Of a stretch of 64,000 nucleotides of DNA, positions 3,309 through 48,144 are shown one piece after another. Under the pieces are notes generated by a model, which made no database searches, was not told where the DNA came from, and saw nothing but the letters and a program-made list of their open reading frames with translations. Each line of letters starts with the position of its first letter. The first letter of the stretch is position 1. This DNA comes from Pristiophorus japonicus (taxonomy: Eukaryota), in assembly GCF_044704955.1 (NCBI RefSeq), contig NC_091977.1, forward strand, positions 239,816,001-239,880,000, read 5' to 3'. The translations under genes were made by a program, and so were the position numbers.

Positions 3309-3330
3309 ATGACATGACGAAAGATTAGTC

Positions 3331-6300
3331 TTGCGTGCCATGCCATGTATCATGCAATGTGCCATGCCGTGTGTCATGTTATGTGTCATGTCTCATGTCA
3401 TGTCATGTTGTGCCATGTGTCATGTTGTGTGCAATATTATGTGGCGTGTTGTGTCATGTGTCGTGTCATGTGTCATGCTGTGTGTCATGTTGTGCCGTGT
3501 GTCATGTTGTGTCGTGTGTCATGTTGTGTCGTGTGTCATGTCATATCATGTCATGTGTCATGCTATTTGTCATGTTGTGTGCCATGTTGTGTTCATATGT
3601 CGCTTAATGTCTTGTGCCATGTTGTGTTGTGTGTCATGTCACGTGTCATGTCATATTGTGTGTAATGTTGTGTTGTTTGTCATGCTGTGTGTCATGTTGT
3701 GTCGTGTGCCATGTTGTGCATCATGTCTTGCGTCATGTCATGTTGTGCCGTGTATCATGTTGCATGCCATATTGTGTGGTGTGTTGTGTCATGTGCTGTG
3801 TCATGTGTCATGCTGTGTGTCATGTCGTGTCACATGCAGTGTGTCATAAATGACATGTGTCATGCCATTTTCATGTTGTGTGCCATGTCATGTGCCAGAT
3901 TTCATATGTGCAATGTGCTGTTTGTCATGTCATGTGTCATGTTGTGTCATGTAATTTTGTGTGTCATGTCTTATGTCATTTGTGTCATGTTGTGTGTCAT
4001 TATGTGTGTCATGTATTATGCTGTGTGTCTCGTTGTGTCATGTGTCATGTTGTGTATCGTGTTGTATCATGTCATGTCGTGTGTCATGTCATGTTGTGTG
4101 CCATGTTGTATTGTGTGTCATGCCATGTGTCATGCCATGTGTCATGCCATGCATCATGTTGCATGTCATGTCATGTGTCATGTCGTGTCTGGTGTCATAT
4201 TATCTGTTATTTCGTGCTCATGTATCATGTCATGTTTAATGTTGTATGTCATGTTGTGTCAGGTAATATGTTGTGTGTCATGTCATGTGTCCTGTGTCAT
4301 GTGCCGTGTCATGCCATGTTGTGCCATGTGCCATGTTGTGCACCATGTCTCACGTCATGTCATGTTGTACCATGTGTCATGTTGCATGCCATATTGTGTG
4401 GTGTGTTGTGCTACGTGCCATGTCATGTGTCATGCTGTGTGGCATGTCGTGTCACATGTCATGTGTCAGAAATGCCGTGTGTCATGCTGTTTTTCATTTT
4501 GTGTGCCATATTTCATGTTATGTGTAATGTGATGTTTTTCATGTCGTGTGTCTTGTGTCATGTAATGTGTGCCATGGCATATGTCATTTGTGTCATGCTG
4601 TGTATCATGTGTTATGCTGTGTGTCTTGTTGTATCATGTGTCGTGTTGTGTTTCATGTTGTGTCGTGCCATGTTGTGTGTCATGCCATGTGTCATGCCAT
4701 GCATTATATTGCATGTCATGTCATGTGTCATGTCGTGTCTGGTGTCATGTTGTGTGTCATTTCGTGCCATGTGTCATGTAGTGTGCCATGTGTCATGTGA
4801 CATGTGACATGTGACGCGTGTTATGTGTCATGTCATTTTGCATCATGTGTCATGTAATGTGCCATGCCATGTGTCATGCTGTGTGCCATGTTGTGCCATG
4901 TGTCATGCCGTGTGTCATATCATGCCTAGTGCTGTGTCATGTGTCGCCATGTGGCATGTCATGTGTTGTGTGTCATGTGATGCATCATGTGTGGCATATG
5001 TGGCACATGTTGTGTCATGTGCCATGTGTTGTGTAGCGTGTCATGTGTCAAGTCATGTGTCATGTCATGTGTAATGTTGCATGTCATGCAGTGTCAGGTA
5101 ATATGTTGTATGTCATGTCATGTGTCCTGTGTCATGTGTCATGTCGTCCCATGTTGCCATGTTGTGCATCATGTCTCACGTCATGTCATGTTGTGCCATG
5201 TGTCATGTTGCATGCCATATTGTGTGGTGTGTTGTGTCACGTGCCGTGTCATGTGTCATGCTGTGTGTCATGTTGTGTCACATGTCATGTGTCAGAAATG
5301 CCGTGTGTCATGCTGTTTTTCATGTTGTGTCATGTTGCATCATGTGTCATGTCATGTCATGTGCCATGCCATGTGTCATGTTGTGTGCCATGTTGTGCCA
5401 TGTGTCATGCCGTGTGTCATATCATGCCACGTGCCGTGTCATGTGTTGTCATGTGGCATGTCATGGCATGTTGTATGTCATGTCATGCGTCATGTGTTGT
5501 GTCATGTGTCATGTGTCTTGTGTTGTGTGGTGTGGCGTGCCATGTGTCAAGTCATGTGCCATGGCATGTGTAATGCTGCATGTCATGTTGTGTCATGTGA
5601 CATGTTGTGTGACATGTCATGTGTCATGTGCCGTGTTGTGCCATGTGTCATGTTGTGCATCATGCCTCACGTCATGTCATGTGCCGTGTGTCATGTTGCA
5701 TGCCATAGTGTGTGGTGTGTTGTGTCATGTGCCGTGTCATGTGTCATGCTGTGTGTCATGCCGTGTCACATGTCATGTGGCAGAAATGCCGTGTGACATG
5801 CTGTTTTTCATGTGTGCCATATTTTATGTTATGTGTAATGTGATGTTTTTCATGCCATGTGTCATGTGTCATGTAATGTTGTGTGTCATGGCATATGCCA
5901 TTTGTGTCATGTTGTGTGCCATGTGTTATGCTGTGTATCTTGTTGTGTCATGTGTCATTTTGTGTATCATGTTGTGTCATGTCATGTCGTGTGTCATGTC
6001 ATGTTGTGTGTCATGCTATGTGTCATGCCATGCATTATATTGCATGTCATGTCATGTGTCATGTCGTGTCTGGTGTCATGTTGTGTGTCATTTCGTGCTG
6101 TGTGCCATGTACTGTGCCATGTGCCATGTGACATGTGGCATGTGTCACGTGCTATGTGGCATGTAATGTTGCATCATGTGTCATATCATGTGCCATGCCG
6201 TGTGTCATGTTGTGTGCCATGTTGTGCCATGCGTCATGCCGTGTGTCATATCATGCCAAGTGCCGTGGCATGTGCCATGTGGCATGTCTTGTTGTGTTGT

Positions 6301-8762
6301 ATGTCATGCCATGCATCATGATGTGTGTCATGCATGTCATATTTTGTGTCGTGTGTCATGTGTCATGAGTTGTGTGCTGTGCCGTGTCATGTGTCAAGTC
6401 ATGTGTCATGTAATGTGTAATAATGCGTGCCATGTGTCATGTGACATGCTGCGTGTCATGTCATGTGTCATGTGCCGTGTGTCATGTCATGTTGTGTGTC
6501 ATACCGTGTCATATGTCATGTTGTGTGTAATGTCATGTTGTGTTCCATGTCATGTGTCATGCTATGTGCTTATGCTGTGTGTCATGTGTGTCACGCATCA
6601 TGTAATGTCATGTGGCATGTGTCATGTTACATGCCATATTGTGTGGTGTGTTGTGTCATGTGTCATGTCATGTGTCATTCCATCTGATGTGTCATGTTGT
6701 GTTGTGTGTAATGGCATGTCATGTCATGTGTTATGGCTTGTGATGTGCCATGTGTCATATCGTGTGACCTGCCGTGTTTCATGTAGTGTCATGTGTCATG
6801 TCATGTCATGTTGTGTCATGTGTCATGTTGTGCCATGTCATGGTGTGTGCCAAGTTGCTTCATGTCATGTCATCTGTCATTTCATGTGTCATGTTGTGTG
6901 TCATGTGTCATGTTGTGTCATGCGTCATGTTGTGTAGCATGCCATCTGTCATGTCATAGCATGGGCCATGCCATGTCATGTGTCATGCAGTGTGCCATGG
7001 CATGTGCCGTGCCATGTGTCATGTGTGTCATGTTATGTCCTGTCATGTGTATGCCGTTTGTCATGCCGTGTGTCATGTCATGTCATGTGTTATGTTGTGT
7101 AGTGTGTCATGTGTCATGTCATGTGTGTAATGGTGTGCTGTTTGTCATGGTGTGTGTCATGTTGTGTCATGTGCCATGTTTGCATCATGTGTGCCATGTT
7201 GTGTCATGTGTTATGCCAAGTGTCATGTGTCACATCATGTAAATTTCTTGTTGTGTGTCATTTTGTGTGGCATGTCATGTCATGTGTCATGCCCCATCAT
7301 GTGTCATGTTTAGTCATGTGTCATGCCGCATTGTGTGTCATTTTGTGTTGTGTGTTGTGCCAGCTGTCATGCCATGTTGTGCTGTGTGTCATGCCATGTG
7401 TCATGTTGTGCCGTGTGTCATGCCATGTGGCATGTCATGTGTTGTGTCAGGTGTCATGCTGTGTGTCATGTCATGTCGTGTGTCATGTCATGTTGTGTGT
7501 CATGCCATTTGTCATGTGTGCCATGTTGTGTGTTGTATATCATGTCGCATCTTGTGTAATGTTGTGTTGTTTGTCATGGTGTGTGTCATGTTGTTTCATG
7601 TGACATGTTGTGTATCATGTGCGTCATGTTGTGTCATGTGTTATGCCATGTGTCTTGTGTTGTATGTCATGTTGTGTTGTTTCATGCTGTGTGGCATGAC
7701 GTATCGTATTGTGTGTCATGTCATGTATGCTGTCATGTGTCATGTTGTGTATCATGTTGTGTCATGTGTCATGTCACATCTTGTCATGTGCCATGTCGTG
7801 TTGTGCCATGTCGTGTTGTGTGTCATGTCATGTGTCATGTCATTTTGTGTGTAATGTTATGTTGTCGGTCATGGCTTGTGTTATGTGTGCCGTGTGCCAT
7901 GTTTTGTGTCATGCCGTGTGTCATGTTTTTCCATGTGTTATGCTCTGTCTTGCCGTGTTGTTTCATGCTGTGTGCCATGTTGTGTGGCATGTCATGTGTT
8001 GTGTGTCATGTCATGTGTGGTGCCACGTGGCATGTGTATCATGTCATGCTGTATGACATGTGTCATGTGTCATGCAATGCATCATGTCGCGTGTCATGTC
8101 ATGTGTCATGTCGTGGCACGTCATGTCATGTCGTGGCAGGTGTCATGCTGTGTGTCTTTTGTGCCATGTGCCATGCTGTGTGCTGTGTGTCATGTGTCAT
8201 GTGTCATGTGGCATGTGTCATCAGTTTGTGTCATGTGTCATATCATGTGTCATGTCATGTGTCATGTTGTGTGCCTTGCCATGCCATGTGTCATGGCGCA
8301 TGTCATGTTGTGTTGTATCATGGTGTGTGTCATGTTGTGTTGTCATGCCATGTCTCAGGTTGTGTTCCATGTTGTGTCATGCATCATGTCATGTATTATG
8401 TTGTGCCAAGTGTCAAGTCGTGCCATGTTGTGTTATGTGGCATGTCATGTGTTGTGTGTCATTTCATGTGTCATGTGTGCTCTGTTGTGTGTCATGTGTG
8501 TTGTGTTGTGTGCTGTGTGTCGTGCATCATGTGCTGTGTGCTGTGTCATGTCATGTGTCAATCTTGTGCCATGTCTTGTATAATGCCATGTGACATGTTG
8601 CATCATGTGTCAGGTCAAGTCATGTTGTGTCATGTGTCATGTCGTTCCGTGTCATGTCATGTGTCATGTTGTTTCACGTCATGTCATCTGTCATTTTGTG
8701 TGCCGTGTTGTGTGTCATGTTGTCTCATGTGTCATGTCGTGCGTCGTGCCATTTGTCATTTC
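3331..8762 (+). repeat. (TGTCA/TGTCG/TGTTG)n low-complexity satellite, about 5.4 kb, with internally duplicated blocks
   Basis: Continuous tgtcatgtgtcatg-type sequence. Rare marker CAGAAATGCCGTGTG at 4467, 5293 and 5781; AGGTAATATGTTGT at 4261 and 5096. Confidence 0.97.
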
Positions 8763-10680
8763 ACGGACTTCCCGTGGCGGCAGATGACCTCCTCCTCAAT
8801 GACGACCGGGTCCCCCTCTCTCACGTCGGCGACTGGCCTCCCCTACTCCTTCAGCGACAACTGGAGCTCTCTTTCCCCACTGGCGACCTGGCCTCTCCTC
8901 CTCCTCCAACACATGGTGAGTTCCATGGCTGTGACCCCCCCTGCTATCCCACCCTGAACCCCGGTGGGCCACTGACCCTCCCAATGCCTGTCCCCAACCA
9001 AGCCTCGGATCACCTACCACCAAGGGCACTAACCAGCGCCGAGCCTGTGGCCAACATCTCGCCGCAGGCAACTAGGCCCATATAGCAGTGCCTGGTCGCC
9101 AGTCATCTTGGATCCCCTTGCCACTGGATCAAGATCTCGCTCAGCTAAGCCTGTGTGGTAGCCGGTGTGCAACGATCACCCCACGTTAAAAGAACTCATG
9201 CACAGGCACCTTCCACTCCTCTAACATTAAGTTCAGGACCTGGAACTTCAGGACCCTCATGGACAACCCCAACATCAACAAACCGGAACGCTGCACCATT
9301 ATAGTTGCCCGGGAACTTAGATGCTTTGATATCGAATTCTGAGTCTTAAACAACAACCCAATGCGGGAGCAGCAAAACAGCGTTACAGACGGCTCAAGGC
9401 TGAGATCCAACAAAAAACCAGGGACCAAAAGAACAGGTGGTGGATGAAGAAAGCACAGGAGATACAGCAGCTGGCCGACAATCATGATGTGTGAGGATCC
9501 TCCATCGCAGTCAAGGCCACCTACAGGCCGAGCACCAAAGGCCCCACCCCATTGCTGGCCAAGAACGGGGAAACACTCATCAAGGACACCGAGGCAGTCA
9601 GGGCCCGCTGGAATGAGCACTTCGAAGATCTTCTCAATCGAGACTCTGCCTTTGACTCGAGTGTTCTCGACTCCATCCCGCAGCATGCTACCCGCCACCA
9701 CCTCAGTAAAACCCCAACACTGCATGAGTTAGAAAAAGCCATAAGACAGCTCAAAAACAACAAGGCTACGGGTGCGGATGGAAGCCCTGCTGAGGCACTG
9801 AAGTATGGCGGAGAGACACTGCTGGCACGAATACATGACTTCATCTCTCTCATCTGGAGGGAGGAGAGCATGCTGGGGGATCTCAGAGATGCATTAATCA
9901 TCTTTAAAAAAGGGGGACAAGTCTGACTGTGGCAACTACGGAGGAATCTCCCTGTTATCAGCCACTGGTAAAGTCGTCGCTAGAGTCCTCCTCAACTGTC
10001 TTCTCCCGTAGCCGAGGAGCTCCTCCAGGAGTCACACTGCGGATTTTGCCCCCTATGGAGCACAATGGACATGATATTTGCAGCGCAACAGCTACAGGAA
10101 AATAGCAGGGAACAGTGCCAGCCCTTATACATGGCCTTCTTCGACATTACAAAGGCCTTTGACACTGTCAACTGCGAGGGTCTATGGAGCGTCCTCCTCT
10201 GTTTCGGATGCCCCTAGAAGTTCATCACCATCCTCCGCCTGTTCCACGATGACATGCAGACCATGATCCTTACCAACGGATCTATTGCAGACCCAATCCA
10301 CGTCTGGACCGGGGTCAAAAAGGGCTGCGTCATCGCGCCAACCCTCTTCTCAATCTTTCTCGCCGCCATGCTAGTCTTACAGTCAACAAGCTCCCTGCTG
10401 GAGTAGAACCAAACTACAGAACCAGTGGGAACCTTTTCAACCTTCGCCGTCTCCAGGCCAGATCCAAGACCACCCCAACCTCTGTCGTCGAGTTACAGTA
10501 CGCAGATGGCGCCTGCGCCTGCGCACATACAGAGGCTGCACTCCAGGACATAGTCGACGTATTTACTGAGGCACACGGAAACATGGGCCTTACTCTAAAT
10601 ATCCGTAAGACAAAGGTCCTCCACCAGCCTGTCCTCACTGCACAGCGCTGCCCCCCAGTCATCAAGCTCCATGGCACGGC
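8763..10680 (+). mobile_element. RTE (BovB-like) LINE, internally deleted and 3'-truncated
   Basis: Endonuclease start KFRTWNFRTLMDNPN..PER (about 9230); LLAKNGETLIKDTEAVRARWNEHFEDLLNR; NYGGISLL; GVKKGCVIAP; LQYADG (from YADD); GLTLNIRKTKV. Membership of 8763-9083 is less certain. Confidence 0.88.
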
Positions 10681-11165
10681 TGTGTTTTGTGTTGTGTCAT
10701 GGTGTGCCATGTGTCATGTTGTGCCATGTGTCAAGTCATGTGTTGTGTTGTGTGTCGTGTTGTGTGTCGTGTCATGTTGTGTCGTGTGTCATGTCAAGTG
10801 TCATGTTGTGTTGTGTGTCATGTTGTGTCGTCTGTCATGTTGTGTCATGTGTCATGTGTGTCATGTTGTGTCATGTTGTGTCATGTTATGCCATGTGTGT
10901 CATGTTGTGTCATATCATGCGTCATGTCGTGTGTCATGTTGCATGTCATGGCATGTCATGTGTCATATCATGTCATGTTGTATTGCGTCATGTTGTGCCA
11001 TGTGTCATGTTGTGTTGTGCCGTGCCATGTGTTGTGTTATGTGTCATGTTGCATCATGTCATGTCATGTGTTGTGTGTCATGTTGTGTCATGTTGTGTCG
11101 TGTGTTGTTTGTCGTGTTGTGTGTCGTGTCCTGTCGTGTATTGTGTATGTCGTGTGTCATGTATC
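10681..11165 (+). repeat. Second block of the TGTCR satellite
   Basis: Same units as 3331-8762, same orientation. Confidence 0.95.
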
Positions 11166-12895: not shown

Positions 12896-12932
12896 TTTGG
12901 CGATGAGAAACGGGAATCACCGAACCACGAGG

Positions 12933-15900
12933 ATGGCCACCGGCAGCACAGAGGAACGTTACTGTGTGGGCGAGAACTGAGACGACTTCGTGGAAAGATT
13001 CCAGCAGAGCTTTGTCACGAAAGACTGGCTGGGAGCGACAGCGGCTGGCAAGCGGAGGGCGCATCTACTGACCAGCTGCGGACCACAGACGTATGCGTTG
13101 ATGAAAGACCTGCTCGCACCCCAAAAGCCAGTGGACAAGTCCTTTGAAGAGCTCAGCCAGCTGATCAGTGAGCATCTCAAGCCGGCGAGTAGCGTACACA
13201 TTTCCCAGCACTGGTTCTACACACACTGGCGTCGGGAGGGACAATACACCTCGGACTTCGTTGTGGACCTGCGGCGCTTGGCCAGCCTCTGTAAGTTCAC
13301 AGACGCCTGCAGGGGGGAGATGTTAAGGGACTTTTTCATTGAGAGCATTAATCATGCCGGGATTTTCAGGAAGCTCATAGAGGCCAAGGACTTGATTTTA
13401 GAAGGGGCGGCATTGATAGCTCAGCTCTTCATGGCAGGGGAAGAGGAGACCAAGCTAATTTACGCGCGCAGCCCTGGTCCCAGAGTGGCGATGGACCAGG
13501 GAGTTAACATAGTGAACGCGGCTAGGGACCCCGCAGGCAGGCAAGGGCATTTCGAAACCGCCCAGGCAGCAACAGACTCCAGGGCGGGCCCGCAACAGGG
13601 ACAATGGAAAGGGGATCGGTAATTCACGCCATCACGAGCAACAATATGTCCTGCGATGGGACCATTAACACCCACCATCAGAGTGCTTAGAAACAAGCAA
13701 ATGGGCAATCAGAGAGGAATACCTGGTAACAGTCCCTTTGTTACCAACAATCTCAGTTCATGCTGGAGATGCGGGGGTAGACATACTGCGAAAAGCTGCA
13801 GGTTTCAGCAAAATACCTGTAGGATTTGTAACGTCAGTGGACACTTGGCCAGGATGTGCAAAAAGGCTGTGGCGAGGCTAATCTGTGAGACAGAGGAACC
13901 AGACGAGGGGTCTGCAATGCAGGATGATGCCTGGGGAAAAGCTATGGATGCTGAAGTTCAGCGGGTTCACGTGGCTGACGTCCACAACTCATACACTAAA
14001 ACGCCACCCATGATGATGAAAGTTTTATTGAATTGCATCCCGGTGCACATGGAGCTGGAAATGGGAGCTAGCGAGTCACTTATAAGTGCCCAACAATTTG
14101 AGAGACTATAGCCACACAGAGCTAGCAGGCCCAAACTGGAACGCATTGACACACAGCTACGGACATACATCAAAGAGATCATTCCAGTGCTAGGCAGTGC
14201 AAACTTGGTGGTAACACATAATAGATCATAAAACCGGCTGCCCCGCGCTCTTGGGGAGGAGTTGGCTAGCCAAGATGAATTGGAAATGGGGGGATGTGCA
14301 TGCCATTTCATCTGTGGAGCGAAGTTCATGCTCACAGGTCCTACAAAAATTTGGGTCACTGTTTCAACCCGGAGTCAGAACGTTCAAGTGCACTAAAGTA
14401 GTGATACGCATCATTCCGGATGCCAGACCAGTGCACCACAAAGCCAGAGCGGTGCTGTATGTGATGCGTGAGAAAATTGAAAGTGAATTGGACAGGCTGC
14501 TCAGAGAGTGCATCATTTCGGCCATTGAATTCAGCGACTGGGCAAGTCCCATCATTCCTGTCCTTAAAGCAGATGGCTCGGTCAGGATTTGTGGCGACTA
14601 CAAAGCCACCATCAACCGAGTGTTGCTGCAAGACCAATACCCGCTCCAGAGAGCGAAAGACCTTTTTGCCATGCTGGCAGGTGGCAAGCTGTTCACGAAG
14701 CTGGAACTCACTTCAGCCTACATGACTCAGAAACTGGCTGAAGAATCCACCATGACGACGCACAAGGGATTATTTATCAACAACAGGGGTCCATTTGGCA
14801 TTTGTTCAGCGGCGACAGCTATCTTTCAACGGAACATGGAAAACTTGCTCAAATCCATTCCTGGAACAATCGTATTTCAAGACGACAACCTTATAACGGG
14901 TCGAGGCACCGAGGAACACCTCCACAACCTGGAGGAGGTGCTACGCCGACTGGACCGGGTAGTCTTGCGGCTGAAAAAGGCCAAGTGTGTGTTTTTGGCC
15001 CCAGAACTCGAGTTTTTGGGCAGAAGGGTTGCCGCAGACGGGATCCGGCCCATCGAATCAAGAACGGAGGCGATCCGCCGGGCGCCCAGGCCCGGCAACA
15101 CGTCGGAGTTGCGATCATTCCTGGGACTTTTGAACTATTTTGGGAACTTTCTGCCAAACTTAAGCACATTGTTGGAGCCGTTACACATGCTCCTGCATAA
15201 AGGTTGTGATTGGCTTTGGGGGGACTGTCAAGAACGGGCTTTCAATAAGGCGAGGAACCTGCTGTGTTCGAACAGACTGTTGACTTTGTATGACCCCTGT
15301 AAAAAACTGGTTTTAACGTGCGATACATCGTCCTACAGGGTTGGGTGTGTGTTGCAGCAGGGTAATGACGACTGCTGAGTCCAACCAGTGGCTTATGCCT
15401 CCAGGTCACTCTCCCAGGCAGAGCGTGGATACGGCATGGTCGAAAAGGAAGCACTCGCTTGTGTTTACGGTGTGAAAAAGATGCACCAGTACCTTTTTGG
15501 TAGACGGTTCGAGCTAGAGACGGACCACAAGCCGTTAACATCCCTGCTGTCCAACAGCAAGGCTGTCAATGCCAATGCGTTAGCTCACATACAGCGATGA
15601 GCTCTCACGCTGGCTGCGTATGACTACACCATACAGCACCGGCCAGGCACCGAAAATTGCGCTGATGCGCTCAGCAGGCTTCCCCTGGCCACCATCGAGG
15701 GGTCAGCGGAGCAAAGCTGAGGCTTTTGACACCGCAGGCTCCCCCATCACAGCCCGCCAGATCAAACTCTGGACCAACAGAGACCCCCTCCTATCCATGA
15801 TAAAGAAATGTGACCTAACTGGGGATTGGGCGCCCACACACAGGGCATGCCCCGAGGAGGTCAGACCGTTTCAGAGACAGATGGATGAGCTCTCCATCCA

Positions 15901-17073
15901 AGCTGACTGCCTGCTATGGGGCAGCCGGGAAGTCATGCCCCAGAAAGGAAGGGAAGCGTTCATCAGGGAACTCCACAGTGAGCACCCTGGCATCGTGTTA
16001 ATGAAGGCCATTGCCCGGTCACATGTATGGTGGCCGGGGATTGACTCAAACCTGGAACACTGGGTTTGCAAGTGCACGACATGTGCCCAGCTGGGCAATG
16101 CCCCCAGGGAGGCCCCACTCAGCCCGTGTCCTGGCCCACCAGGCCATGGTCACGCATTCACGTAGACTATGCAGGCCCGTTCATGGAGAAAATGTTCCTG
16201 ATTGCTGTCGATGCATACTTGAAATGGATCGAGTGCACCATATTAAACTCGTGCACGGCATCCATCACCGTGGAGAGTCTGCGTACGGTTTTCGCGGCCC
16301 ACGGCTTGCCGGATATCCTGGTCAGCGACAATGGCCTGTGTGTCACCAGCCATGAATTCCAGGAGTTTATGTCGGGCAATGGTATCAAACACGTCCGGAC
16401 AGCGCCGTTCAAGCCGGCTTCCAATGGCCAGGCGGAACGTGCGGTCCAAGCCATAAAACAGGGCATGCTACGCATCCAAGGACCCTCCCTTCAGTACCGC
16501 CTATCGTGCCTCCTGCTGGCCTACAGGTCCTGCCCGCACTCGCTCATGGGAGTCCCGCCAGCGGACCTTCTCATGAAATGCATATTTAAAACACGGCTGT
16601 CCCTCATTCACCCAGCCCTGGCAGACATTGTTGGGGGCAAGCGCCAGTCCCAAACCGAGTTCCATGATCGAAACTCAAGGGGGAGGTGTATAGAAATGGA
16701 TGACCCGGTATTTGTTCTTAACCATGCTTTGAGACCCAAGTGGCTTGAGGGCACAGTAATTGGCAAAGAAGGGAATAGGGTCATTGTGGTCAGACTAAAC
16801 AATGGGCAGATATGCCGCAAACACTTGGACCAAGTAAAGAAAAGGTTCAGCATAGACACGGAGGCACCTGCAGAAGAGCATGAGATGTCACCCACATCAC
16901 TGCCAGTGGACGAGCAATGAGGACAATCCACAGCATGCACAGTCCCTGCGGCCAGCCTGGACAGGCCGGAATCACCTCAGGTGACAGAGACACGTACCGA
17001 GGCTCAGCCACCAGAGCCATAACTGGGGCGCTCCATGAGAGAGCGTCGACCACCTGAAAGAGTTAACCTTTGA
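12933..17073 (+). pseudogene. gag-pol: Gypsy-1 gag-pol with stops and frameshifts
   Basis: Two zinc knuckles (CWRCGGRHTAKSC, CRICNVSGHLARMC); RT WASPIIPVLK..VRICGDYK, FQDD; RH LTCDTS; IN HSEHPG..CTTC, HVDYAGP, SDNG. Confidence 0.93.
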
Positions 17074-20237: not shown

Positions 20238-21418
20238 TTAATCTTCAATAAAGGAGACTACAAAGGTATGAAGGCAGAGTTGGCTAAAGTGGACTGAGAA
20301 AATAGATTAATGTGTGGGACAGTTGATGAGCAGTGGCAGACATTTAAGGAGATATTTCATAACTCTCAACAAAAATCTATCCCAATGAGAAGGAAAGACT
20401 AATGGAAGAGATAATGATCCTTGGCTAATTAAGGAAATAAGGGATGGTATCAAATTGAAAACAAGGGCATACAATGTAGCCAAGACCAGTGGGAGGCCAG
20501 AGGATTTGGAAACTTTTAAAAGCCAGCAAAGAATGACTAAAAACATAATAAAGAGAGGGAAAATAGATTATGAAAGTAAACTCGCCGAAAATATAAAAAC
20601 AGATAGTAAGACTTTCGACAGGTACATAAAAAGGAAAAGAGTGGCTAAAGTAAATGTTGGTCCCTTATGTGATGAGACTGGGGAATTAATAATGGGGAAC
20701 AGGGAATTGGCAGACTTTGAACAAATATTTTGTCTTGGTCTTTACAGTAGAAAACATTAAAAACATCCCAATAGTGGATAATAAAGGGGCTATAGGGACG
20801 AAGGAAGTTAATATAATCACTATCACTAAAGAAGAAGAACTTGATAAAATAATGGGACCAAAGGTGGACAAGTCCCCTTGACCTGATGGCTTGCATTCTA
20901 GGTTCCTAAAAAAAGTGGCTGCAGAGATAGGGGATGCATTGGTTGTAATCTACCAAAATTCTGGGGAGGTCCTAGCAGATTCAAAAAGTGCAAATGTAAT
21001 GACCCTATTTAAAAAAGGGGGCAGACAGAAAGCAGGAAACTATAGACTGGTTAGCCTAACATCCGTCGTTGGGAAAATGCTGGAGTCAATTATTAAGGAA
21101 GCAGTAGCAGGACATTTGGAAATGCATAATTCAATCAAGCAGGGATAGCATGGCTTTATGAAAAGGAAATCATGTGTGACAAATTTGGTGGAGTTCTTTG
21201 AAGATGTAATGAGCAGGGTGGATAAAGGGGATCCAGTAGATGTAGTGTATTTGGATTTCCAGAAGGCATTCGATAAGGCCACATAAGACGTTGCTGCACA
21301 ACATAAAAGTTCACGGGATTGGAGGTAATATATCAGCATGGATAGAGGATTGGCTAACTAACACAAAACAGAGAGTCGGGATAAAGAGGTTATTTTCCAG
21401 TTGGCAAACAGTAACTAG
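20238..21418 (+). mobile_element. CR1 LINE part 2 (ORF2 linker and RT N-terminal half)
   Basis: [33 protein letters not shown]; ends at VTS, where the provirus inserted. Confidence 0.9.
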
Positions 21419-22622
21419 TGTAAGCGATTTTGATCCTAGCCTAATTGCTAGATGGACGGTTCGAATCGCCCCCGCCTTACGAAAGTTCTAGACCCGGGAA
21501 TTATTATTCAGAGTGTAAATGAAATGAGTCACGGACAGGAATGCTTCGGTGAAAAAAAAATCATACTTCTATTTATTTGGGCTAACATACACTGGCTAAA
21601 ACATGCACTACTAAACAAAATCACTGTGTCTGTGGAGAATAAAATCCAGGTTACAAACAACATACATACAGTACAGAAATGAGACCTAGTAACATGCAGT
21701 AATTCCTTGGTGGATTCTAACTGCACCCCTACCAACAAATTACCCTCCCCAGAATAGCCCTGAAAAGCTTCACTTCTGAGAAAACCTGAGCCCTTACCCA
21801 GCATGCCTGGGATATCTGGTTACTGGCTTGGGACACTCTCGATCATGCACACCATCACATGCAGCCGGTTTCCTTTCTCAGCTCAGCTGTGGGAAGTCAC
21901 TGCCTGGTTTTCAGTCTCGGCGGCTTCTTCTGCTGCACTGCGGCTTCTTCCTCTGGTACATCGATCTTGGTGTAGCGAGAGCGAGAGGTAGAGAGAGCTC
22001 TCTCTAGATACAAGCAGCAAGCTGCAAGCTCCAAGCTTCACTCCAAGCTCCAAGCTTCAAGCTAAAAATAAAGTGGAAAAGACTCTGGTTTTATGGGAGT
22101 TTTGTTACCCCTATCTTTCCCGCCAATCTTTAAAACCCCTTTGTATCTAAGCACAGATGCTTAGTCAGTGATAGGCCATCCAACCCACATGCACTGGGTG
22201 ATGGCCCTTAATCTGGGTATCTCGCCGTGTCTTTGTGTTAGGAATAATCTGGCTCCCCTTTGGCTGGCCAGGCTAGTGGGTTCATTGTTTCTGTTTTTCC
22301 TTCTGAGATGGAAGTGAGAAGTGCTTTTACATATTAGAGTGGCTTTGTCAATGGCCCTTCCTGACTGACAGCTCTTTTGTCAATATTCGTGGCCCCCTTC
22401 CTTTAGCTGTGACTGGTGGGCAAACCCGTTCTGGATGACTGACAGATCTTTTGTCACAACTCGCTGCCATGCGGTCTCTGGAGTTTTAACAAAACCAGCT
22501 TTTTCACATACCTGCACAGAGTGATCCCATCATAGGGAAAATACCCTCAGAAAAACCCATAAAGTCCATGAAATATTCTCGACTGAATCCATTCTTGAAA
22601 CAGCAACTTTGCGATCTCTTCA
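21419..22622 (-). repeat. 3' LTR of the Loki-like provirus
   Basis: TGTAAGCG...TCTCTTCA on the plus strand; PPT (minus strand ATGGGGGAC) adjacent at 22623-22631. Confidence 0.93.
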
Positions 22623-22981
22623 GTCCCCCATTTGATGCTTTTTCTTTCCATAAAGCATCACTCGACGAGAGAGCAAAGGCCAAAGTCTCCCACAAGTGAA
22701 GTTGTTCCCCTGATTTTACGTTTTAAAAACCCCAAAACTGTACCCCTTACTGCATGTCACCGTTCCCTTCTACAGAGTTAAGACATCAGTGAAAACGGCT
22801 TCTTAACACGTGGTCGGATTCCACTCCTCGATACGTTAGAAAAACACTGCGCACATCACGCAAAACAGAGTGTGAAACCCTAACCAGAATATACAATACA
22901 CTTGCTTACAGAACTTTGGTACATTACAAGTTTTAGCAGGGAGAAACCATCGTCCACATACATCAATTACACCTCTCCGGG

Positions 22982-25272
22982 TCAATCTAACACCCCTTGC
23001 CACTGCGCTCGGATCATCTGGCTCTGTCGCCTGTAGCTGGTGTAAAACAAGTAGCCTACAAGGAACAATTGTATGATAACCAATGCATGGGAACAGATGC
23101 AGTTCCCGGGAGGAATCTCCACACTCAGACCGATGTCCCACCACGGTGGCGAGGCAATCCCCTTGATCTCCTCCCCCAGTCCTACTGTCTTTTGCTCTAA
23201 GGTTTAAAAATGTTTCTGGGATAGCTCAACGGTCTTTATTAACTCAGTGAGGTGTTCCGGCAGAAAAGGAATCGGGTACCCGAAATGCTCCACATAGTCC
23301 TGGAGATGCGTGTCATTCACAGTGAGGTGAATGGTTGAGGGTTCGAGGATGGGAGTAATTCGCTCTTGTGCCACTTGAACCTCAGCCTTGAGTGTGAAAG
23401 AAAACTGCTATCGTTCATCGGACACCACATGTCCTGATTGTATCGGTAGCGGAGCGCACGTGGTGCCACTCCCCACATATGCTACCTGTGGAGGTACGTG
23501 ATCTGGTGCCATCATTTCCATGGTGCAATTGATAGGTTCCCCGCCTGCAGAAGCAAACCCACATTCTGATCGGGCAAAAGCAATCAAGTGCTGGGGACAC
23601 AGTATTACGTGTGCACCACGGCTCTGGCATCCGGAGAGGTCAATGCCTGTCATGGCATGCTCCCACTTTATGACATACGGTAGGACCACTTTAAAACGAA
23701 CATGCACTCCTCCACGAATGACCCCGATATTCTCAACCCTGTATACCGGTGCTGGCTGGAATTACCTGTCCATTACCAGCATCCTTACTACAATTCCCAT
23801 CACTGTATGGTTGGACTGCCTGCAATCTAGAGGGACAGGGTAGGCTTCAGAGGCTAAACAAAGCTGGCACGGGCTCAATGAATTGCTATATGGATGCAGC
23901 GCGACGAGATGCTTGTTGTTTATCCATGAAGGGACGTGACCTTGCCTCAGGTCCTCCAGGTTACAGCGGCCCTCGCCCAGCAGCTATGCTCCATACAACA
24001 CACACACCTCATACCGGACAGCCTGCTCCGAGGTGTTCCTGTCCTCCCGTATTAAATCATTAACAGTTATTAGCGTGCCTCTCCAGCTCCGCAATGACCT
24101 CCTTTAAATGAACAGTCATTGCCTGGTCCTCATGAAGCTCTGAACCCACCACTTTGTTCTTTTCCCCTAGAATCTTACACAGTTGGTTCTTTAACCCAGT
24201 GATCTGCATCTGGAGTTGCACATCATCCATAGTATTAACAATACCCGTTCCTGTACTGAGCACTGTGGCTACATCGTTCCAGGTCCCTCTTCTCTGCCTC
24301 CCGGACCCCACACTATTCCCAACATTCAGATCATAAAGCTGTTCTTTATCTACATTTCCAAAGTCCAGTTTATAAAATTCCTGAAGCATCACTTTTAACA
24401 GAGCTTCATAAAGCTTCTTCGTCTTCTTTGGGCAGCACACAGGCAGGTGGACTTCAGTCAGGTTGAGGATCACGCATGTCACGGAGTAGTGCACATTCTG
24501 AAACAAAACTTTGTCAGTAGGGATTAACACCAACCCATTGCTGGATCCCTGGTGGTGGTAGGACACCTATCTATAGCCGTCTGTACTGTCGGGCTCTGGG
24601 CGGGGGCTTCCTGGTGTATGAGATGAGCTCTGTGGCGTTGATGGTGTTCGGGGGATTTGGGATCACACAGGAGTCCACACTCCGACCCCAACCAATCCCA
24701 CCCCCGGCATCCTGCCATCGCCTGCTAAACGCGATCGACACACCAGTTCGGCAGATCTTTTCCGACCCCCACATATACACATCAATCCCTTCCTCGGAGT
24801 CCCACCACTTATTGCAACACAGATACACTCCTCCCTGAGAATCCGTGATCGTCCAGTACGTGTCGTTACGTAGTCTTTCCCAGTCAGCTGTCTGGTCCCC
24901 TGTGTCCATGCTCAGTTTCCTAAGCCACCATCACCTTCCCAGTAGAATGTGTCCCCTACAGCTAAGGCACACCTGTTTACCCTCCGTTACCCTAACCCGG
25001 GAGGTGGTGACCCCTATTCTCGGACATGGGATGGAAGCTTCACCATTGTTGAATTTGTCATGGCTGGAATACTGGGTGGAATTCGACCCCAGCCATCCAG
25101 GCCCTCTTCCCTTGTGGAGATAGACGCTCGCCCCATCATTCGAGCCACCTCCAGTGCTCACGGTCGGTCCGTCTCTGCCAGTGCAGCCGAAGATAACTGA
25201 TTCCTCGGTGTCGCCCCTGCGACTCGTGCTGGCTTCAATCATGGCGATCAGGATTACTATGGCTGGCTTCAT
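22982..25272 (-). pseudogene. env: env: F-like class I fusion glycoprotein with an N-terminal extension, several stops and frameshifts
   Basis: Signal-like MKPAIVILIAMIEAS; furin site RQRR followed by GTWNDVATVLSTGTGIVNTMD and a heptad; DLRQGHVPSWI; YRVENIG; IDLSGC..ILCP; PPWWDIG followed by TM ALVIIQLFLVGYLFY and a short tail (manually translated). Confidence 0.8.
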
Positions 25273-25299
25273 TTTATTTTTAGGCATTCCCTGACAAAC

Positions 25300-28200
25300 A
25301 CACAGACCCATACCTGTAGCACAGCTCACCACTCCCTGCTGCTTCCTTCTCTTGTCAGCTCTTTCCCCAGGGTTGAAAAGCTTGCACTGATTGATATGGA
25401 ACCACTTAGTGCGTCGGGGCATTTTGACCACATATACCATCGGACTTGCCTTATCCACGATACTGTACGGTCCCATGTATAGCGGTTCAAAAGTCCCTAC
25501 CCTGGCGAACTTTCTGACCATTACTTAATCTCTGACCTTCCACTCGTGGTGCCTCCGAAGCTCAAGCAATAAACGATTTCTACGATGTTGCTTCCCCATG
25601 TTACTGGCAGCCTGCCAATGGATCTGTTTGAGATGTTCAAACAGATTCTTAACAAACCTTTTCCGGTTCACCGCTCTCAACTGACCTTCCATGAGAACCG
25701 GTGCCAGTACATGGCTGGGCGTTCTCATGACCCTGCCAGTCATGAGCTCATGTGGGGAATACCCTGTGCTTCTAGAGGGGCTGGCTCAGACCCCCATCAA
25801 AACTAACGGCAAGACCTCCACCCATTTTCTAGGCGAGTCTCCCGTTTCCTTTCATAACCTTTCTTTGATGGTCCTATTCATTCACTCCACAATCCCTGAT
25901 GACTGCAGGTTGTGGGCGACGTGCCATTTACCCTCTCCACCTAGCATCTTCAGAGTCGCCTGCATGACTGCCCCTGTGAAGTGACTCCCCTGATCGGACT
26001 CCACATACTGTGGTAGCCCCCACCTAGAGAATGCTTCTCTCACTAGAATCCTTGCGGTCCCCACAGCTGGGAAACCTTCTACCCATTTAGAAAACACATC
26101 TACCAGGACCAGGCAGTATTGTAACCCCCCTGCGCGATGGACAGCAGCCCGATATAATCGACCTGTATGGACTGCCATGGTCCCTCCACTCTCCTTGTGT
26201 GTCCCATGGATACCTTCCTTTTCTGGGGGTCAGGGTTGTTTGCAGCACACACCAAGCAATCCGCGCAGAAGTTGCGGACATCCTCCCTCAGTTACGGCCA
26301 CCACCCTGCCTGTTCCACCCGTTGCCAGGTGGTTTCCAGCCCAGGGTGCCCCGCTCCTGGACCCTCATGGGCCAACTGAAGGAATTCTCTCCGGTGCTGC
26401 TGTGGAACTACCCACTGTTCCCCTCTGAAAACCATCCCTTCCTTTACCGTAATGCCTGTCACTCCGTATGGACCCTCTACCTTATCACCCTTAGCCAGCG
26501 TCTCCAGAACAGTCTTTAGGATGGGATCCTGTGTCTGGACCATCTTTAGGTCCAGGGCCAATACTACCCCTGCACTCCCTTGTGTCCCATCTCTGTCCCT
26601 GATCGCGGCTACTGGACTCGACCCATAAGGATCCCAAAACATGCCCGTTCGAGCACCTTCCTTGGCCAGTATGTCGGCCTGCTGATTGACCTCTGCACGG
26701 GGTTCTGTCTTAGAATGGGCCTTGACTTTGTGGATATAGAAATCCCCCTGGGTTCCTATTGATGTTATGATCTGTTGCAACTATGGCTTGGTTGCTAGGG
26801 GTTTCCCGTCTGTGATGTGAACCCGCAACGAGACCAAATGGCTAAATATTCTGCATATGAATTGCAAGTGAACATGCTGTCCTAGCAAATCGTGTAGGGT
26901 GTAGGGAACTCTTCGGGGTGGGTAACCATATACACCACCGCTGACAGTTCAGCGTGCTGGGCGCTCATGGTGCTCGGGAGTTTAATGGCCTTGGCAATGC
27001 CCGCCTTTGGGTCAAAAATCTCGCATCCAGTGAATCACTCCCCTGCCACCACTGTACTGGACCCGTCTACATAGATCTCGCAGCCCGTAGGATTGATCCC
27101 AGCCCAAAACCCTATGTTTACATCCCATGCCCCTTCAACAGAACATTTGTGAGCCACCTCTAGATAGATCAAATTTGCGGCGAGCTTGGGCTCACAGAGG
27201 CCTTTCACGCTCAAATTCATCTGCGAGAGTAATAAAGTCCAGCAAGCAATGCGTGCACTGCTCACCATGCGTCCTTTATCCTCCCATCCAGAAGCATCTG
27301 AGTGGGCGTATGATGGGTTAAGAGAGTTATCGGGGACACCCCTGTGAAGATTTGTGATCTCTTCACGGCCCAAATGTGTGGCAAGCAGGTGCCTCTCACA
27401 ATTGGAGTACCCCCTCTCTACATCTGTGAGGATTCTTGATGAGTATACCACAGGCCTCAGCTTGCCATGTTGCTCCTGGAACAGCACTGCACTTAAACCG
27501 TCCCCTGGGGCAGCTACCTCCAAAAAGAACTGCTCTCCCCCATCAATTGCTCCCAAAGCCGGTGCGGTCTGCAGATCGCTCTTCAGACGACTAAAAGGTG
27601 CCATGCAGTCCTCATCCCACTCCCAGCCCACTCCCTTGTGGAGGAGCCGGAGTAGAGGGGCTGCCGTAGTGGCATAATCGCTCTATGAAATCCCTGCAGT
27701 ACCCTGGAAGGATCTTACTCCTGTTACCATGGTCGGGGCAGGTAGCTCCTCGCCTCATCGATGGCCCTCACCCCAGCCCGCACGGTCAGCCCGAGGATTT
27801 TTACTTCCTGCTGCCGATCTGTGCTTTCCTAGGATTGACCTTGAAGCCAGCTTCCTTTAACAGACTCAGCAGCTCAGCCAGCAGTGGGCCATACTCCTCC
27901 TCCTTTGTCGGATAACAAAAGCAGGTTGTCCACATACTGCACAAGCTGCTGCGGTCTGCTGAACCCTTTTGTTGGCCATACATTGCTGGAAAATAGAAGG
28001 ACTGTTATGAAACCCTTGGGGAAGGCAGGTCCATGTGTACTGCTGACACTTGAAAGTGAATGCGAGCTTCTGAGAGGGATAGACCAGAATCCACTTGAAA
28101 TGTCCAGCACCATGAATGTTTTCGCAGATGCTGGGATACTCCCGATCAGGTTGGCTACAGCTGCGACAGTGGAGGCACAAGCTGGGATGTTCTTGTTAAG

Positions 28201-28957
28201 AATCCGATAGTCCACAGTGGCTCTCCACGAATTGTCCGGTTTCCTAACCGGCCAAATCAGAGAGTTCACATGGGTCGCTATGAGTCTCAACACACGCCTC
28301 TAAATCCGCCTCAGCCTTTCTAGGGAAGTTGTACTGTTTCTGTGGTCGGGCCATGGGGTCTCCTTCTACTCTGACCTCCACCCCTGCTACCCTCCCACAG
28401 TCGTGCTTGTGTGTAGCGAATGCCACGAGGTTGGCTCGCAGATCCGCCCTGTACTCCGCCGGGGTAGAAGTGACCAAAGGTTCAAGGTCATTAATACCCT
28501 TGGGCTTCATTGTACACGCGGTTCCATTGCCTTGCTTCCCTGGTATAACTATCACCTCCTTCTGCTTTCCTGTGCATACTGCCCCCCATAGACAGTGATT
28601 CTGGAAATCCACCAATATCTTGTGGGCCAGTATGAAGTCTGTCCCCAAAATGCCTATTCCCCCCCACTCCCACCACATCAGGACACATTTCCACTCCATA
28701 TGGAGTGTCCTCAGATCGATGGCTAGCAGGATGGAGAAAGACCCCGTTCATTCGTTCCCGGTGAACCCTACTAAGTTATATGGGACCCCGTTCGATAGAG
28801 GTGATGTGGTCGGGTTATCTGCATAGACAATAGTGCTTGAAGCTCCAGTGTCCAGCAGCTAGGTCCCTTGCACCTTCTCCACCTCCATCTTCACGCACGT
28901 TCTTCTCCAAGCATTATAACTTAATGGGCACTGGTAAACGGGCTGGGAAGCCCCTCG
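25300..28957 (-). pseudogene. pol: pro-pol (PR, RT, tether, RNase H, IN), degenerate
   Basis: LLDTGAS; NSLIWPVRKPDNSWRATVDYR; LPQGFHNSP; QYVDN; tether FFLEVAA..RPVVYSSR; RNase H IYVDGSS..HAEL..KVKAHS; IN AHEGPGAGHPG, LVDVFSKW, SDQGSHF, QSSGIVE; GPY module. Confidence 0.92.
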
Positions 28958-30606
28958 TCATGGGTCGGGATTGTTCGGAGCGGATGGGAGTACGCTTCCT
29001 GCTGCCACCCTACCCTGCCCTGCCGGAAAGACTGCGCGGAGAACAGCCACTAATACCGCGAATGGATCCAGTGCTGCTTCCCACCACAGCTGCGGCTTTC
29101 CGCGCTGGGGCTGGAGGATCCCCTTTCCCGCTCCCTTTGTCAGAGACTGGGCAGTCTTTCCTCCAGTGCCCTTTACTCCCGCACCCATAACAACCCTGCT
29201 TCTTCTCTGAGCTACCCACTTTCTGGCGCCACTCTTTTCTAATGTTGCCTCCACTAGGCTTTAACTCGTGCACTCTGCCCTTTGGTTTGTCCTCCTCACC
29301 CCTACCATTCTTAAAAGAGAGAGTTAACTGCGGATCACCCCCTCGTCTGTGGTCTGGGGATCCTTGGAATCGAACCACCCCTCTCCTTTGGCCTTGATCC
29401 TGGGCAGGCTGTTCACCACCAGGGTCCTCAGCCAATGAGCCTGAGGCTCCCCCTGCAGTTGCGCCCGGTCAGGCACCCCCACACAGGCACTCCGGTAGAC
29501 AGGCCAAAGCCTGCAGTGCCTCCCCAGCTAACTGCAGTGTCCTTTCCTCTCAGGAGAAGGGACTTCCATCATTGAGGTCCATAGCCTCTAGGATGTCATC
29601 CTTTATCCCCTCTAACATACCCTGCCCCTCTTGCTACCTGCTGAGAGCAACTGGTACAACCTACTATCCAGGGAAAACAAAAGTAATTTGGCTGCCTCAG
29701 CTTCATTACAATTATTGATCCCACCCCCCCACCTGTTCCACATCCATAAAATGGACAGATGGGTCGTCATTGCTGGTCAGTTTGGTCAGGTTAGAGACCA
29801 TTGCCTGCAGCTGAGAGGTCATATACTGGACTACGAAGTCACTCTGCAATGGTCCTTGCTCTTGACCGCCTACGGGTGCACCGTATTTCTGCTACCGGAC
29901 AGGGCACATGGATCCTGGTCCCGGCACTTCGAGCGGTGGTCGAGTGTCCTCCTCTGCCTCACAGTCCTTCTTATCTTTCCCCTGCTCTACCTCATCTACC
30001 CGGGCCATTCCCGGAGCTATCAAGCATACCATCCCTTTAGCCCTAGATAGAGCATCGGTTAAATTCTGGATCTGCTCCTGGCAAGGACCATGATTAGCCG
30101 TATCAAAACCTCTAGTGCTGGAGACTCTGTATGCCACCTGAATATCCTTCAACTGCTCTTGCAGCACCTTTACCTCACTCGACAAACGAACGTTCTCCTC
30201 CCTAACCGCCTCTCGTTCCCTTTTGGCTCAGTTACTTGGCATTGCTGGAACTCCTTATGGTTACGGAAGGTTTCCTCCTGGCTTATTCTTCCCCTCTTCT
30301 TATCCCTTAGCTGCGTGCATAACCTGCTCTTTACTACAGCCCTTGCGTCCGATTGTGCCTTGGACTCCCTGAGCTCTGCCGCTAACTTACCAACTGCTCA
30401 TCTAGCAGTTGGACTTGTCTTTGTAGACAGACGAGCCATATTGCCTTTTCAATGCTACGCCTATGCTCCTTGCCCTTCGTCCATTCTGCCGCTGCCTCCA
30501 TTGGACGATCAGCACGCAACAAGCCTAGCACCTTGTTAACCTTCTTAAATACATATGAAGAAATCCCTTCCTCCATTTGTGATCTTTCGCCAGAAGCACT
30601 GTCCAT
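28958..30606 (-). pseudogene. gag: gag with coiled-coil segment and a single CCHC knuckle, degenerate
   Basis: ATG at 30606; heptad-like EVKVLQEQLKDIQ..QEQIQNLTDAL; CYGCGSKGHWRKDCP. Confidence 0.8.
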
Positions 30607-30632
30607 GACTGACTTAGACTCCTTTAACCCGT

Positions 30633-30650
30633 GTCCTGTCGTGGTCGCAA
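30633..30650 (-). promoter_or_regulatory. PBS, probably tRNA-Arg
   Basis: GTCCTGTCGTGGTCGCAA versus the tRNA-Arg(TCG) 3' end GTCCTGCCGCGGTCGCCA (15/18); lies 5 nt from the LTR. Confidence 0.7.
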
Positions 30651-30655
30651 AGAGA

Positions 30656-31848
30656 TGTAAGCGGTTTTGATCCTAGCCTAATTGCTAGATGGACGGTTTG
30701 AATCGCCCCCGCCTTACGAAAGTTCTAGACCCGGGAATTATTATTCAGAGTGTAAATGAAATGAGTCACGGACAGGAATGCTTTGATGAAAAAAATCATA
30801 CTTTATTTATTTGGTCTAATATACACTGGCTAAAACATGCACTACTAAATGAAATCACTGTCTTTGTGGAGAATAAAATCCAGGTTACAAACAACATACA
30901 TACAGTACAGAAATGAGACCTGGTAACATGCAGTAATTCCCTGGTGGATTTTACCTCTACCCCTACCAACGAATTACCCTCCCCAGAATAACACTGAGAA
31001 GCTTCACTTCTGAGAAAACCCTGAGCCCTTACCCAGCATGCCTGGGATATCTGGTTACTGGCTTGGGACACTCACGATCATGCACACCATCACATGCAGC
31101 CGGTTTCCTTTCTCAGCTCAGCTGTGGGAAGTTACTGCCTGGTCTTCAGTCTCGGCGGCTTCTTCTACCGTACTGCAGCCCCTTCCTCTGGTACATCGAT
31201 CTTGGTGCAGCGAGAGCGAGAGGTAGAGAGAGCTCTCTCTAGATACAAGCAGCAAGCTGCAAGCTCCAAGCTTCACTCCAAGCTCCAAGCTTCAAGCTAA
31301 AAATAAAGTGGAAAAGACTCTGTCTTTATGGGAGTTTTGCTACCCCTATCTTTCCCGCCAATCTTTAAAACCCCTTTGTATCTAAGCAGTATCTTAGTCA
31401 GTGATAGGTCATCCAACCCACATGCATTGGGTGATGGCCCTTAATCTGGGCATCTATTCGAGTCTTTGTGTTGGGAAAAATCTGGCTCCCCTTTGGCTGG
31501 CCAGGCTAGTGGGTTCATTGTTTCTGTTTTTCCTTCTGAGATGGAGGTGAGAAGTGCTTTTGCATATTAGAGTGGCTTTGTCAATGCCCGCCCCTCCTGC
31601 CCCCTTCCTGGCCGACAGCTCTTTTGTCAATATTCATGGCCCACTTCCTTTAGCTGTGACTGGTGGGCAAACCCATTCTGGATGACTGACAGTTCTTTTG
31701 TCACAGCTAACTGCCATGCGGTCCCTGGAGTTTTAACAAAACCAGCTTTATCCCATCACAGGGAAAATACCCTCAGAAAAACCCATAAAGTCCATGAAAT
31801 ATTCTCGACTGAGTCCATTCTTTAAACAGCAACTTTGCGATCTCTTCA
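30656..31848 (-). repeat. 5' LTR of the Loki-like provirus
   Basis: Direct repeat of 21419-22622 with scattered substitutions and a few small indels. Confidence 0.93.
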
Positions 31849-32876
31849 CTAGTGGGGTGCTGCAAGGATCGGTGCTTGGGCCTCAACTATTTACAATCTA
31901 TATTAATGAATTGGATGAAGGGATCGAGTGTAAAGTAGCCAAGTTTGCTGATGATACAAAGATGGGTGGGAAAGCAAATTGTGAGGAGGACACAAAAAAT
32001 CTGCAAAGCGATATAGACAGGCTAAGTGAGTGGGCAAAAATTTGGCAGGTGGAGTACAATGTAGTAAAATGTGAGGTTATCCACTTTGGCAGAAAAAATA
32101 GAAAAGCAAATTATAATTTAAATGGAGAAAAAAATGCAAAGTGCTGCAGTACAGAGGGACCTGGGGGTCCTTGTGCATGAAACACAAAAATTTGGTATGC
32201 AGGTCCAACAATTAATCAGGAAGGCAAATGGACTGTTGGCCTTTATTGCTTGGGGGATGGAGTATAAAAGCAGAGAAGTCCTGCTACAACTGTACAGGGT
32301 ATTGGTGAGGCCACACCTAGAGTACTGCGTGCAGTTTTGGTCTCTGTATTTAAGGAAGGATATATTTGCATTGGAGGCTATTCAGAGAATGTTCACGAGG
32401 TTGATTCCGGAGATGAGGGGTTTAGCATGAAGATAGGTTGAGTCGGTTGGGCCGAGACTCATTGGCGTTCAGAAGAATGAGAGGTGATCTTATTAAAACC
32501 GATAAGATAATGAGGGGGCTCATCAAAATGGATGCAGAGAGGATATTTCCACTCATTGGGGAAATTAAAACTAGGGGGCATGGTCTCAGAATAAGTGGCC
32601 GCCCATTTAAAACTGAGAGAAGGAGGAATTTCTTCTTTCAGAGGGTTGTAAGTCGATGGAATTTTCTGCCCCAGAGAGCTGTGGAGGCTGGGTCATTGAG
32701 TATACTTAAGACGGAGATAGACAGATTTTTGAGTGATAAGGGAATAAAGGGATATGGAGAGCAGGCACGGAAGTGGAGCTGAATCCATGATCAGATCAGC
32801 CATGATCTTATTAAATGGCGGAGCAGGCTCGAGAGCCAAATGGCCTACTCCTGCTCCGATTTCTTATGTTCTTATG
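31849..32876 (+). mobile_element. CR1 LINE part 3 (RT C-terminal half, 3' UTR, tail)
   Basis: SGVLQGSVLGP, KFADDTK, RPHLEYCVQFW; tail TTCTTATGTTCTTATGT. Confidence 0.92.
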
Positions 32877-42415: not shown

Positions 42416-42568
42416 GATCGAGACCAGCGAGGAGTAGCGTTCAAGTCCAGCAGGGAGAAGCGTTCGAGACCAGTGGGGAATAGTGTTCAAGACCAGTGAG
42501 GAGCAGCATTCGAGTCCATCGAGGAACAGGGTTCGAGATCAGCGAGGTGCAGCTTTCGAGTCCAGCGA
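42416..42568 (+). repeat. 23-bp tandem repeat (7 units, last partial), each with a B-box-like GTTCRAGWCC
   Basis: Units start at 42416, 42439, 42462, 42485, 42508, 42531 and 42554. Confidence 0.85.
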
Positions 42569-42599
42569 TTGGAGACGGTGAGCAGTGGAGGATCGATGA

Positions 42600-46503: not shown

Positions 46504-46778
46504 ATCCCCCCTTTGATTCTTTCACAAACTGAATCATAAAACATCAGGTATCACTGGTTAAACATTCTACAAAATAATTTCATACATGTTAATAGAGTTT
46601 CCTTCTAAAATTTGTTGATGTGTTTCGCCACATGTCCGGACTAGTAGCTGCCACACAAATTTACACCAACCCGAGTTCCATCGTAGCCACACTGGAAGTC
46701 TGGTTTTAGTAGATTAATTAACCTTATTCCAATTTAATCCAAATTAATATCTTAATTCAACCAGTAAACGACCTTCCC

Positions 46779-48120: not shown

Positions 48121-48144
48121 TTTCGCAAAAAGTAATTGTCCTTA

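Follow-up and report, generated by a model that had tools for sequence, protein, structure and literature searches.

The 64,000-nucleotide stretch of the Pristiophorus japonicus genome analysed here (the window) carries on its minus strand a broken reading frame whose core had been compared, from the letters alone, to the fusion protein (F) of paramyxoviruses and pneumoviruses, and the locus raises the question of what kind of gene this is and to which viral lineage it belongs. The frame was found to be the decayed env gene (22982..25272, delimited by matches to an open sister env) of an LTR provirus of 10.4 kb, which spans 21419-31848 on the minus strand and also holds decayed gag and pol genes in the order LTR-gag-pol-env. 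The 5' LTR (30656..31848; 1193 nucleotides, TG...CA) pairs with the 3' LTR (21419..22622), and a 4-bp target duplication, CTAG, flanks the provirus at 31849-31852 and 21415-21418. A tRNA-Arg-like primer-binding site was located at 30633..30650, where 15 of 18 bases can pair with the 3' end, CCA included, of the tRNA-Arg(TCG) encoded by a gene of the same genome, and a purine-rich tract (around 22623-22650) precedes the 3' LTR. The gag gene (29010..30610) retains an N-terminal coiled coil, a capsid-like region and one CCHC knuckle (zf-CCHC, E 4e-5), the last of which sets it apart from foamy-virus Gag, which is not known to have one. The pol gene (25345..28948) is arranged as PR-RT-tether-RNase H-IN, with a dual RNase H, and is 55-77% identical to the sister pol P0006. 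Divergence between the LTRs (K2P 0.054 over 1178 sites) corresponds to an age of roughly 12 to 120 million years depending on the rate, the bounds being set by the mammalian rate of PMC7947760 and by the shark rate of PMC4422223, which is slower by a factor of ten. The provirus is dead, and its env copy cannot make protein. Other elements in the window comprised another minus-strand provirus (46152-53785), epsilon-like by eye, which has gag, pol and a different env between 353-nt LTRs that are 96.9% identical, as well as decayed Ty3/Gypsy gag-pol sequences on the plus strand (around 12900-17000 and 57800-59800), a degenerate long TGTCA-type satellite (around 3300-11000) and a 22-bp tandem array (42554-43191).

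Within env, the elements listed in the sequence-only reading were recovered on the minus strand in the order that it gave. An F2-like segment, GLVLIPTDKVLF..VILNLTEVHLPVCC (24300..24580), covers the beta strands and the helix with which the F core begins (the model of the sister protein described below aligns from residue 247 to F from about residue 30), and is followed by a single furin-type cleavage site, R-x-R-R (24288..24299), and by a Gly/Thr-rich putative fusion peptide that starts at 24287 and continues into heptad A (24060..24287; long helices at sister model residues 330-444). The end of the helical core and Cys-rich beta domains resembling F domains I/II, as placed by profile and sister model, occupy 23330..24060, and heptad B, a WW motif (around 23140), a hydrophobic transmembrane helix (around 23045-23101) and a short tail ending at the stop codon (22982-22984) make up the remainder (22982..23330). 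A basic cleavage site was found in most members of the env family; an apparent second one in the window, near 24580, coincides with a frame change, is absent from the sisters, and was rejected. Strong hydrophobicity was not seen in the putative fusion peptide, which is amphipathic and shows no hydropathy peak above 1.2 over 19 residues. The part downstream of cleavage, put at about 430 residues beforehand, measured 1303 nucleotides or some 434 codons, and at about 434-457 residues in the window and family it exceeds the short TM subunit of gamma-type Env. The reading frame runs into at least four internal stops (near 24933, 23986, 23764 and 23206) and shifts at four places (near 24580 and 24065, plus a pair bounding about 23410-23460). 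The three surviving pieces nevertheless matched the open sister ORF at 55-64% identity with 187-453 bits, which cannot be attributed to chance since the best of 50 shuffles of that ORF reached 25.8 bits.

The start of the gene had been placed at 24570, which the alignments did not bear out: the real start lies near 25272, about 700 nucleotides further upstream. The F-type interpretation described the arrangement of the core correctly but overlooked an N-terminal head of about 225-230 residues (24590..25272), which consists of a start resembling a signal peptide by eye, a small beta region, an Ig-like domain (around 24720-25030, to which sister sequences lend weak support) and a Pro/Thr linker leading into the core.

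Pfam and PDB sequence searches with the window env pieces returned no F or Env match, and the open sister env P0005, a natural protein of 787 residues which shares 57%, 55% and 64% identity with the three pieces, was for this reason taken as proxy. The same searches with this single sister sequence likewise gave no F or Env match, and RTX and other rows from its PDB search were discarded as chance (E at least 0.4). A single-sequence AlphaFold model of the sister env was unusable (pLDDT 34), but an AlphaFold2 model of P0005 built on a 79-row alignment reached a pLDDT of 64 and a pTM of 0.47, with values mostly of 80-95 in the beta-rich core. When the check by AlphaFold and Foldseek that had been suggested for the window protein was run on this proxy, paramyxovirus or pneumovirus F occupied all rows listed, the best match being 1ztm (E 5.4e-10). 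By VIA, the model aligned with Nipah F (8dmj) at Z 11.4 and an rmsd of 5.2 over 290 residues and with foamy-virus Env at Z 7.4-8.0. When 48,161 chains were scanned without bias, F or foamy Env filled each of the best 15 rows. The alignment to F covers residues 247-660 on both sides of the cleavage site, in a predicted model of a proxy sequence, and the whole-chain rmsd is large. Baculovirus F, named in advance as a supporting match, was found with the sister model in BFVD, together with lispivirus, walleye retrovirus and foamy glycoproteins. The walleye matches were the predicted Envs of walleye epidermal hyperplasia virus 1 and walleye dermal sarcoma virus (Q9WHI8 and A4GTG3; E 2.6e-11 and 3e-9, respectively), and a fish filovirus glycoprotein (A0A2P1GML9) matched the F-type model at E 6.5e-12; these walleye and filovirus matches have low TM-scores. 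Affinity to the gamma-type TM family, which would have spoken against an F-type protein, did not appear, as there was neither a CX6CC motif nor a TLV_coat hit.

Profile evidence was divided. The expected support from an F profile was obtained through the fold of the sister proxy and did not extend to the window pieces, and neither window nor sister env gave any hit to Fusion_gly (PF00523; gathering cut-off 29.8 bits). One of the 41 proteins scanned, the distant family member L032 from this genome, came close (E 1.7e-6, 27.1 bits, below the cut-off) and aligned to the env family profile in hhalign at 98.6%. A PF00523 search of the genome gave two matches among 10 candidates, neither above the cut-off, and one of the two, L033, was dismissed as a repeat artefact. 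In the ESM Atlas the best cluster for P0005 was Fusion_gly (0.94). A 41-row env profile ranked foamy Env first (E 7e-4, 0.003 and 0.014) and F0 next (E 0.083); a larger profile (A3) retained foamy Env alone (E 0.01), and another (A2) matched nothing relevant. On the predicted model of the sister proxy, the env core is predicted to be a class Ib fusogen and almost certainly has the fold shared by paramyxovirus F and foamy Env. That a paramyxovirus or pneumovirus F gene was captured relatively recently might be read from the best structural matches, which are paramyxovirus F, but we regard it as scarcely credible: the family is 7-16% identical to any F, insect-virus, baculovirus and fish-retrovirus glycoproteins match equally well or better in BFVD, and relatives are spread over sharks, skates and frogs. 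The precedence of foamy Env over F0 in the profile search argues for a member of a shared class Ib fold and not for a captured paramyxovirus gene.

The head was likewise examined mainly through the sisters. The N-terminal piece of the window is 57% identical to sister residues 9-233 and has no Pfam match of its own, but sister residues of about 89-175 display the hallmarks of an Ig domain (a B-strand Cys, a C-strand Trp and D-x-G-x-Y-x-C on strand F), which are degenerate in the window copy and present in the sisters. The profile scores of the sister head (Ig_3, E 0.002; CRTAM Ig, E 0.086) were below the cut-off, its ESM Atlas Ig clusters scored 0.85-0.87 (under 0.9), Ig folds were met by VIA at background level (Z 4.4-4.8), and the head of the model has a pLDDT mostly of 30-74. 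Each of these scores is below significance, yet they agree with one another, and UniRef independently labels the relative P0039 as Ig-like. We consider that the head is probably an Ig domain, and by analogy the balance tips slightly towards a role as a cell-attachment module. It is modular, because three env families of this genome can be aligned only downstream of about residue 221-236, their heads being unrelated, and because one env relative has no head.

The env family is present in many copies in the 5.9-Gb genome: of 10,909 env candidates 150 were scored and every one matched, as did each of the 40 scored among 1,610 LTR candidates, the LTR copies being 91-94% identical apart from the window's match to itself. 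The closest named proteins come from sawshark, catshark and skate, which points to a cartilaginous fish as host. A search of 1.84 billion representatives produced 46 env relatives. Of the 20 that were looked up, 13 were chondrichthyan and three were from frogs, and no ray-finned fish was found among the named hosts. The frog relatives (P0046, P0072, P0089, P0055 and P0063), from Pelodytes, Mantella (a 16-member cluster) and Xenopus, share the core; among them a weak V-set head was seen in P0055 and no head in P0063. A sister family represented by L017, L028 and L029 has different LTRs and includes a copy that is young, with LTRs 99.5% identical to each other and a CCCC duplication, and gag and pol lie in one frame with a single stop between them. 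A second family was observed at L064:1462-3819 (G000:C18, around 30.17 Mb), where an env of 786 codons is open and 45% identical to a Chiloscyllium protein; upstream of it lie only integrase remnants and then an unrelated gypsy element, and its kin copies (82-88% identity) carry stops. This open env is a candidate for an env kept by the host. A third family (L046, L096 and L097) combines the same F core with an unrelated Cys-rich head in many near-identical copies, and its pol is 34% identical to that of the window family's sister, with an RNase H that is very SnRV-like by eye. Env pieces were also seen in four shark gene models (P0003, P0010, P0011 and P0071; cadherin-related, Niban, zinc finger and fbxo15), which are either exonised ERVs or annotation chimeras.

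The lineage of the provirus was approached through its polymerase. The reverse transcriptase (RT) was closest to foamy virus and MLV (164 and 151 bits, respectively) and not to Ty3 (109 bits). In a hand count on the alignment printed in the supplement of PMC9040795, the sister RT was identical to that of snakehead retrovirus (SnRV) at 104 of 219 positions (47%) and to that of Loki-Str at 71 of 219 (32%), other references being compared by motif only. The sister RT has the motif LPQGF, as does SnRV, and the window's own RT piece also reads LPQGF; in that alignment Loki and Odin have PFGY. By eye, the RNase H motifs resemble SnRV, and the tether and several env motifs resemble Loki (Loki-Xtr, Loki-Str). 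The integrase is about 40% identical to Loki/Odin by eye and 40-41% identical to P0014 (a marsupial Gag-Pol) and P0013, and so does not discriminate. A coiled-coil (smc-like) region lies before gag, as in the Loki plan; SnRV has an Arg tRNA primer and a Gag coiled coil, both of which the provirus matches. No related RT locus was found in viral_contigs, and SnRV was not among the named env hits. Motif and pairwise identity together suggest that the RT is SnRV-like rather than Loki, with good probability, and that the element is likely to belong to the snakehead-retrovirus-like (clade III) shark ERVs. ERVs of this kind are known from the elephant shark (PMC4422223, PMC4977317), and clade III predominates among the RT hits in chondrichthyans (PMC11089739).

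Lokiretroviruses (lokiortervirus) are the established vertebrate LTR elements with an F-like Env (Wang & Han, PMC7947760), and the window family has in common with them a basic cleavage site, a coiled coil before gag and the dual RNase H, the last of which is not diagnostic of Loki because it is common to all retroviruses. These likenesses, together with the tether and the short env motifs shared by eye, would allow the provirus to be a true lokiretrovirus, extending Loki to cartilaginous fishes, but we judge this improbable. The RT motif and the hand count favour SnRV, and none of six chondrichthyan genomes was scored Loki-positive in PMC7947760. The window family Env, of about 790 residues, has an N-terminal head and a far less hydrophobic fusion peptide, whereas the F core begins right after the signal peptide in the Loki Envs examined, which are headless with a hydrophobic fusion peptide. 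That no ray-finned fish is among the named hosts of the 20 relatives looked up also speaks against a lokiretrovirus. The signals are mixed by domain, and a second pol lineage bears the same env core in this genome (the third family above); domain replacement has moreover been reported for these viruses (PMC7947760). This would fit a mosaic in which an SnRV-like RT is combined with a Loki- or Odin-type tether, integrase or env, as it would a separate basal lineage on an intermediate branch, but outside RT the identities differ little and are not diagnostic, and we hold such an origin to be quite improbable. The SnRV-like assignment is further consistent with the RT and RNase H motifs common to SnRV-like ERVs, including CmiERV lineage I, and with an LTR-flanked span of about 10 kb, like that of CmiERV-1 (9.6 kb; PMC4422223). 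SnRV itself differs in having a 136-residue Env tail and accessory ORFs, the tail of the window family being short. Overall, the locus is best explained, with good probability, as the disrupted env of a defunct LTR provirus that exists in many copies and is likely an SnRV-like (clade III) shark ERV, with a predicted class Ib fusogen and a likely Ig-fold head.

By analogy to F and to foamy Env (PMC11468914), the ancestral Env would have entered the secretory route by its signal peptide, been cleaved at the furin site and formed a metastable trimer. Heptad A would then extend and insert the fusion peptide into the target membrane, after which heptad B would zip back. The N-terminal Ig head may have provided attachment in the same chain, replacing a separate H, HN or G protein, and such a one-chain combination of head and core would parallel the layout of the coronavirus spike and the IgV-like domains of gamma-type Envs. 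The predicted order F2-cleavage-fusion peptide-HRA-domains I/II-HRB-TM (model residues 247-715) is that of paramyxovirus and pneumovirus F (PF00523; 1ztm, 3maw, 8dmj, 3rki), from which the family differs in its low identity, its encoding by a provirus and its own head. Foamy-virus Env (PDB 8ozh, 8rm0, 8rm1) is a retroviral class Ib fusogen, as the family core is predicted to be, but its receptor-binding domain lies between the subunits and the family's extra module is N-terminal (PMC11468914). Gamma-type Env (MLV/FeLV RBD-C) has an N-terminal Ig-fold module too, and modules are swapped between these Envs, but its head is carried by a class Ia core with CX6CC, unlike the predicted F-type core of the window family (bioRxiv 2024.03.17.585361).

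F-like Envs were already known from Loki, from foamy viruses and from the errantiviruses of invertebrates (bioRxiv 2023.10.26.564294), and have been viewed as a Loki-specific acquisition (PMC9040795) or as a surprise of foamy viruses (PMC11468914). The window family differs in its likely SnRV-like RT in a host class scored Loki-negative and in the weakly supported Ig domain before the F core. In the part of the literature that was covered, which included passages of PMC12440569, PMC12287698, PMC12193657, PMC13709493 and bioRxiv 2021.11.05.467493, neither an F-like Env nor one with an Ig head was described for sharks or for SnRV-like ERVs, and no description of the Env fold of the SnRV clade was found. 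Within the family the same F core occurs naturally with various heads and also without any, a modular series such as PMC11468914 proposed for class Ib. A broader possibility, which we advance tentatively and consider doubtful as it stands, is that the F-type envelope was ancestral in retroviruses and that SnRV-clade shark ERVs and their frog relatives swap heads, including host Ig domains, onto a minimal F core; if this were true, one-chain attachment and fusion of the spike type would have arisen inside retroviruses. The predicted walleye retrovirus Envs match the core as well. If sharks carry an F-type Env together with an SnRV-like polymerase, and related Envs occur in skates and frogs, the fold would stand on a third branch, which would favour an F-type envelope early in retroviruses that was replaced later in most orthoretroviruses.
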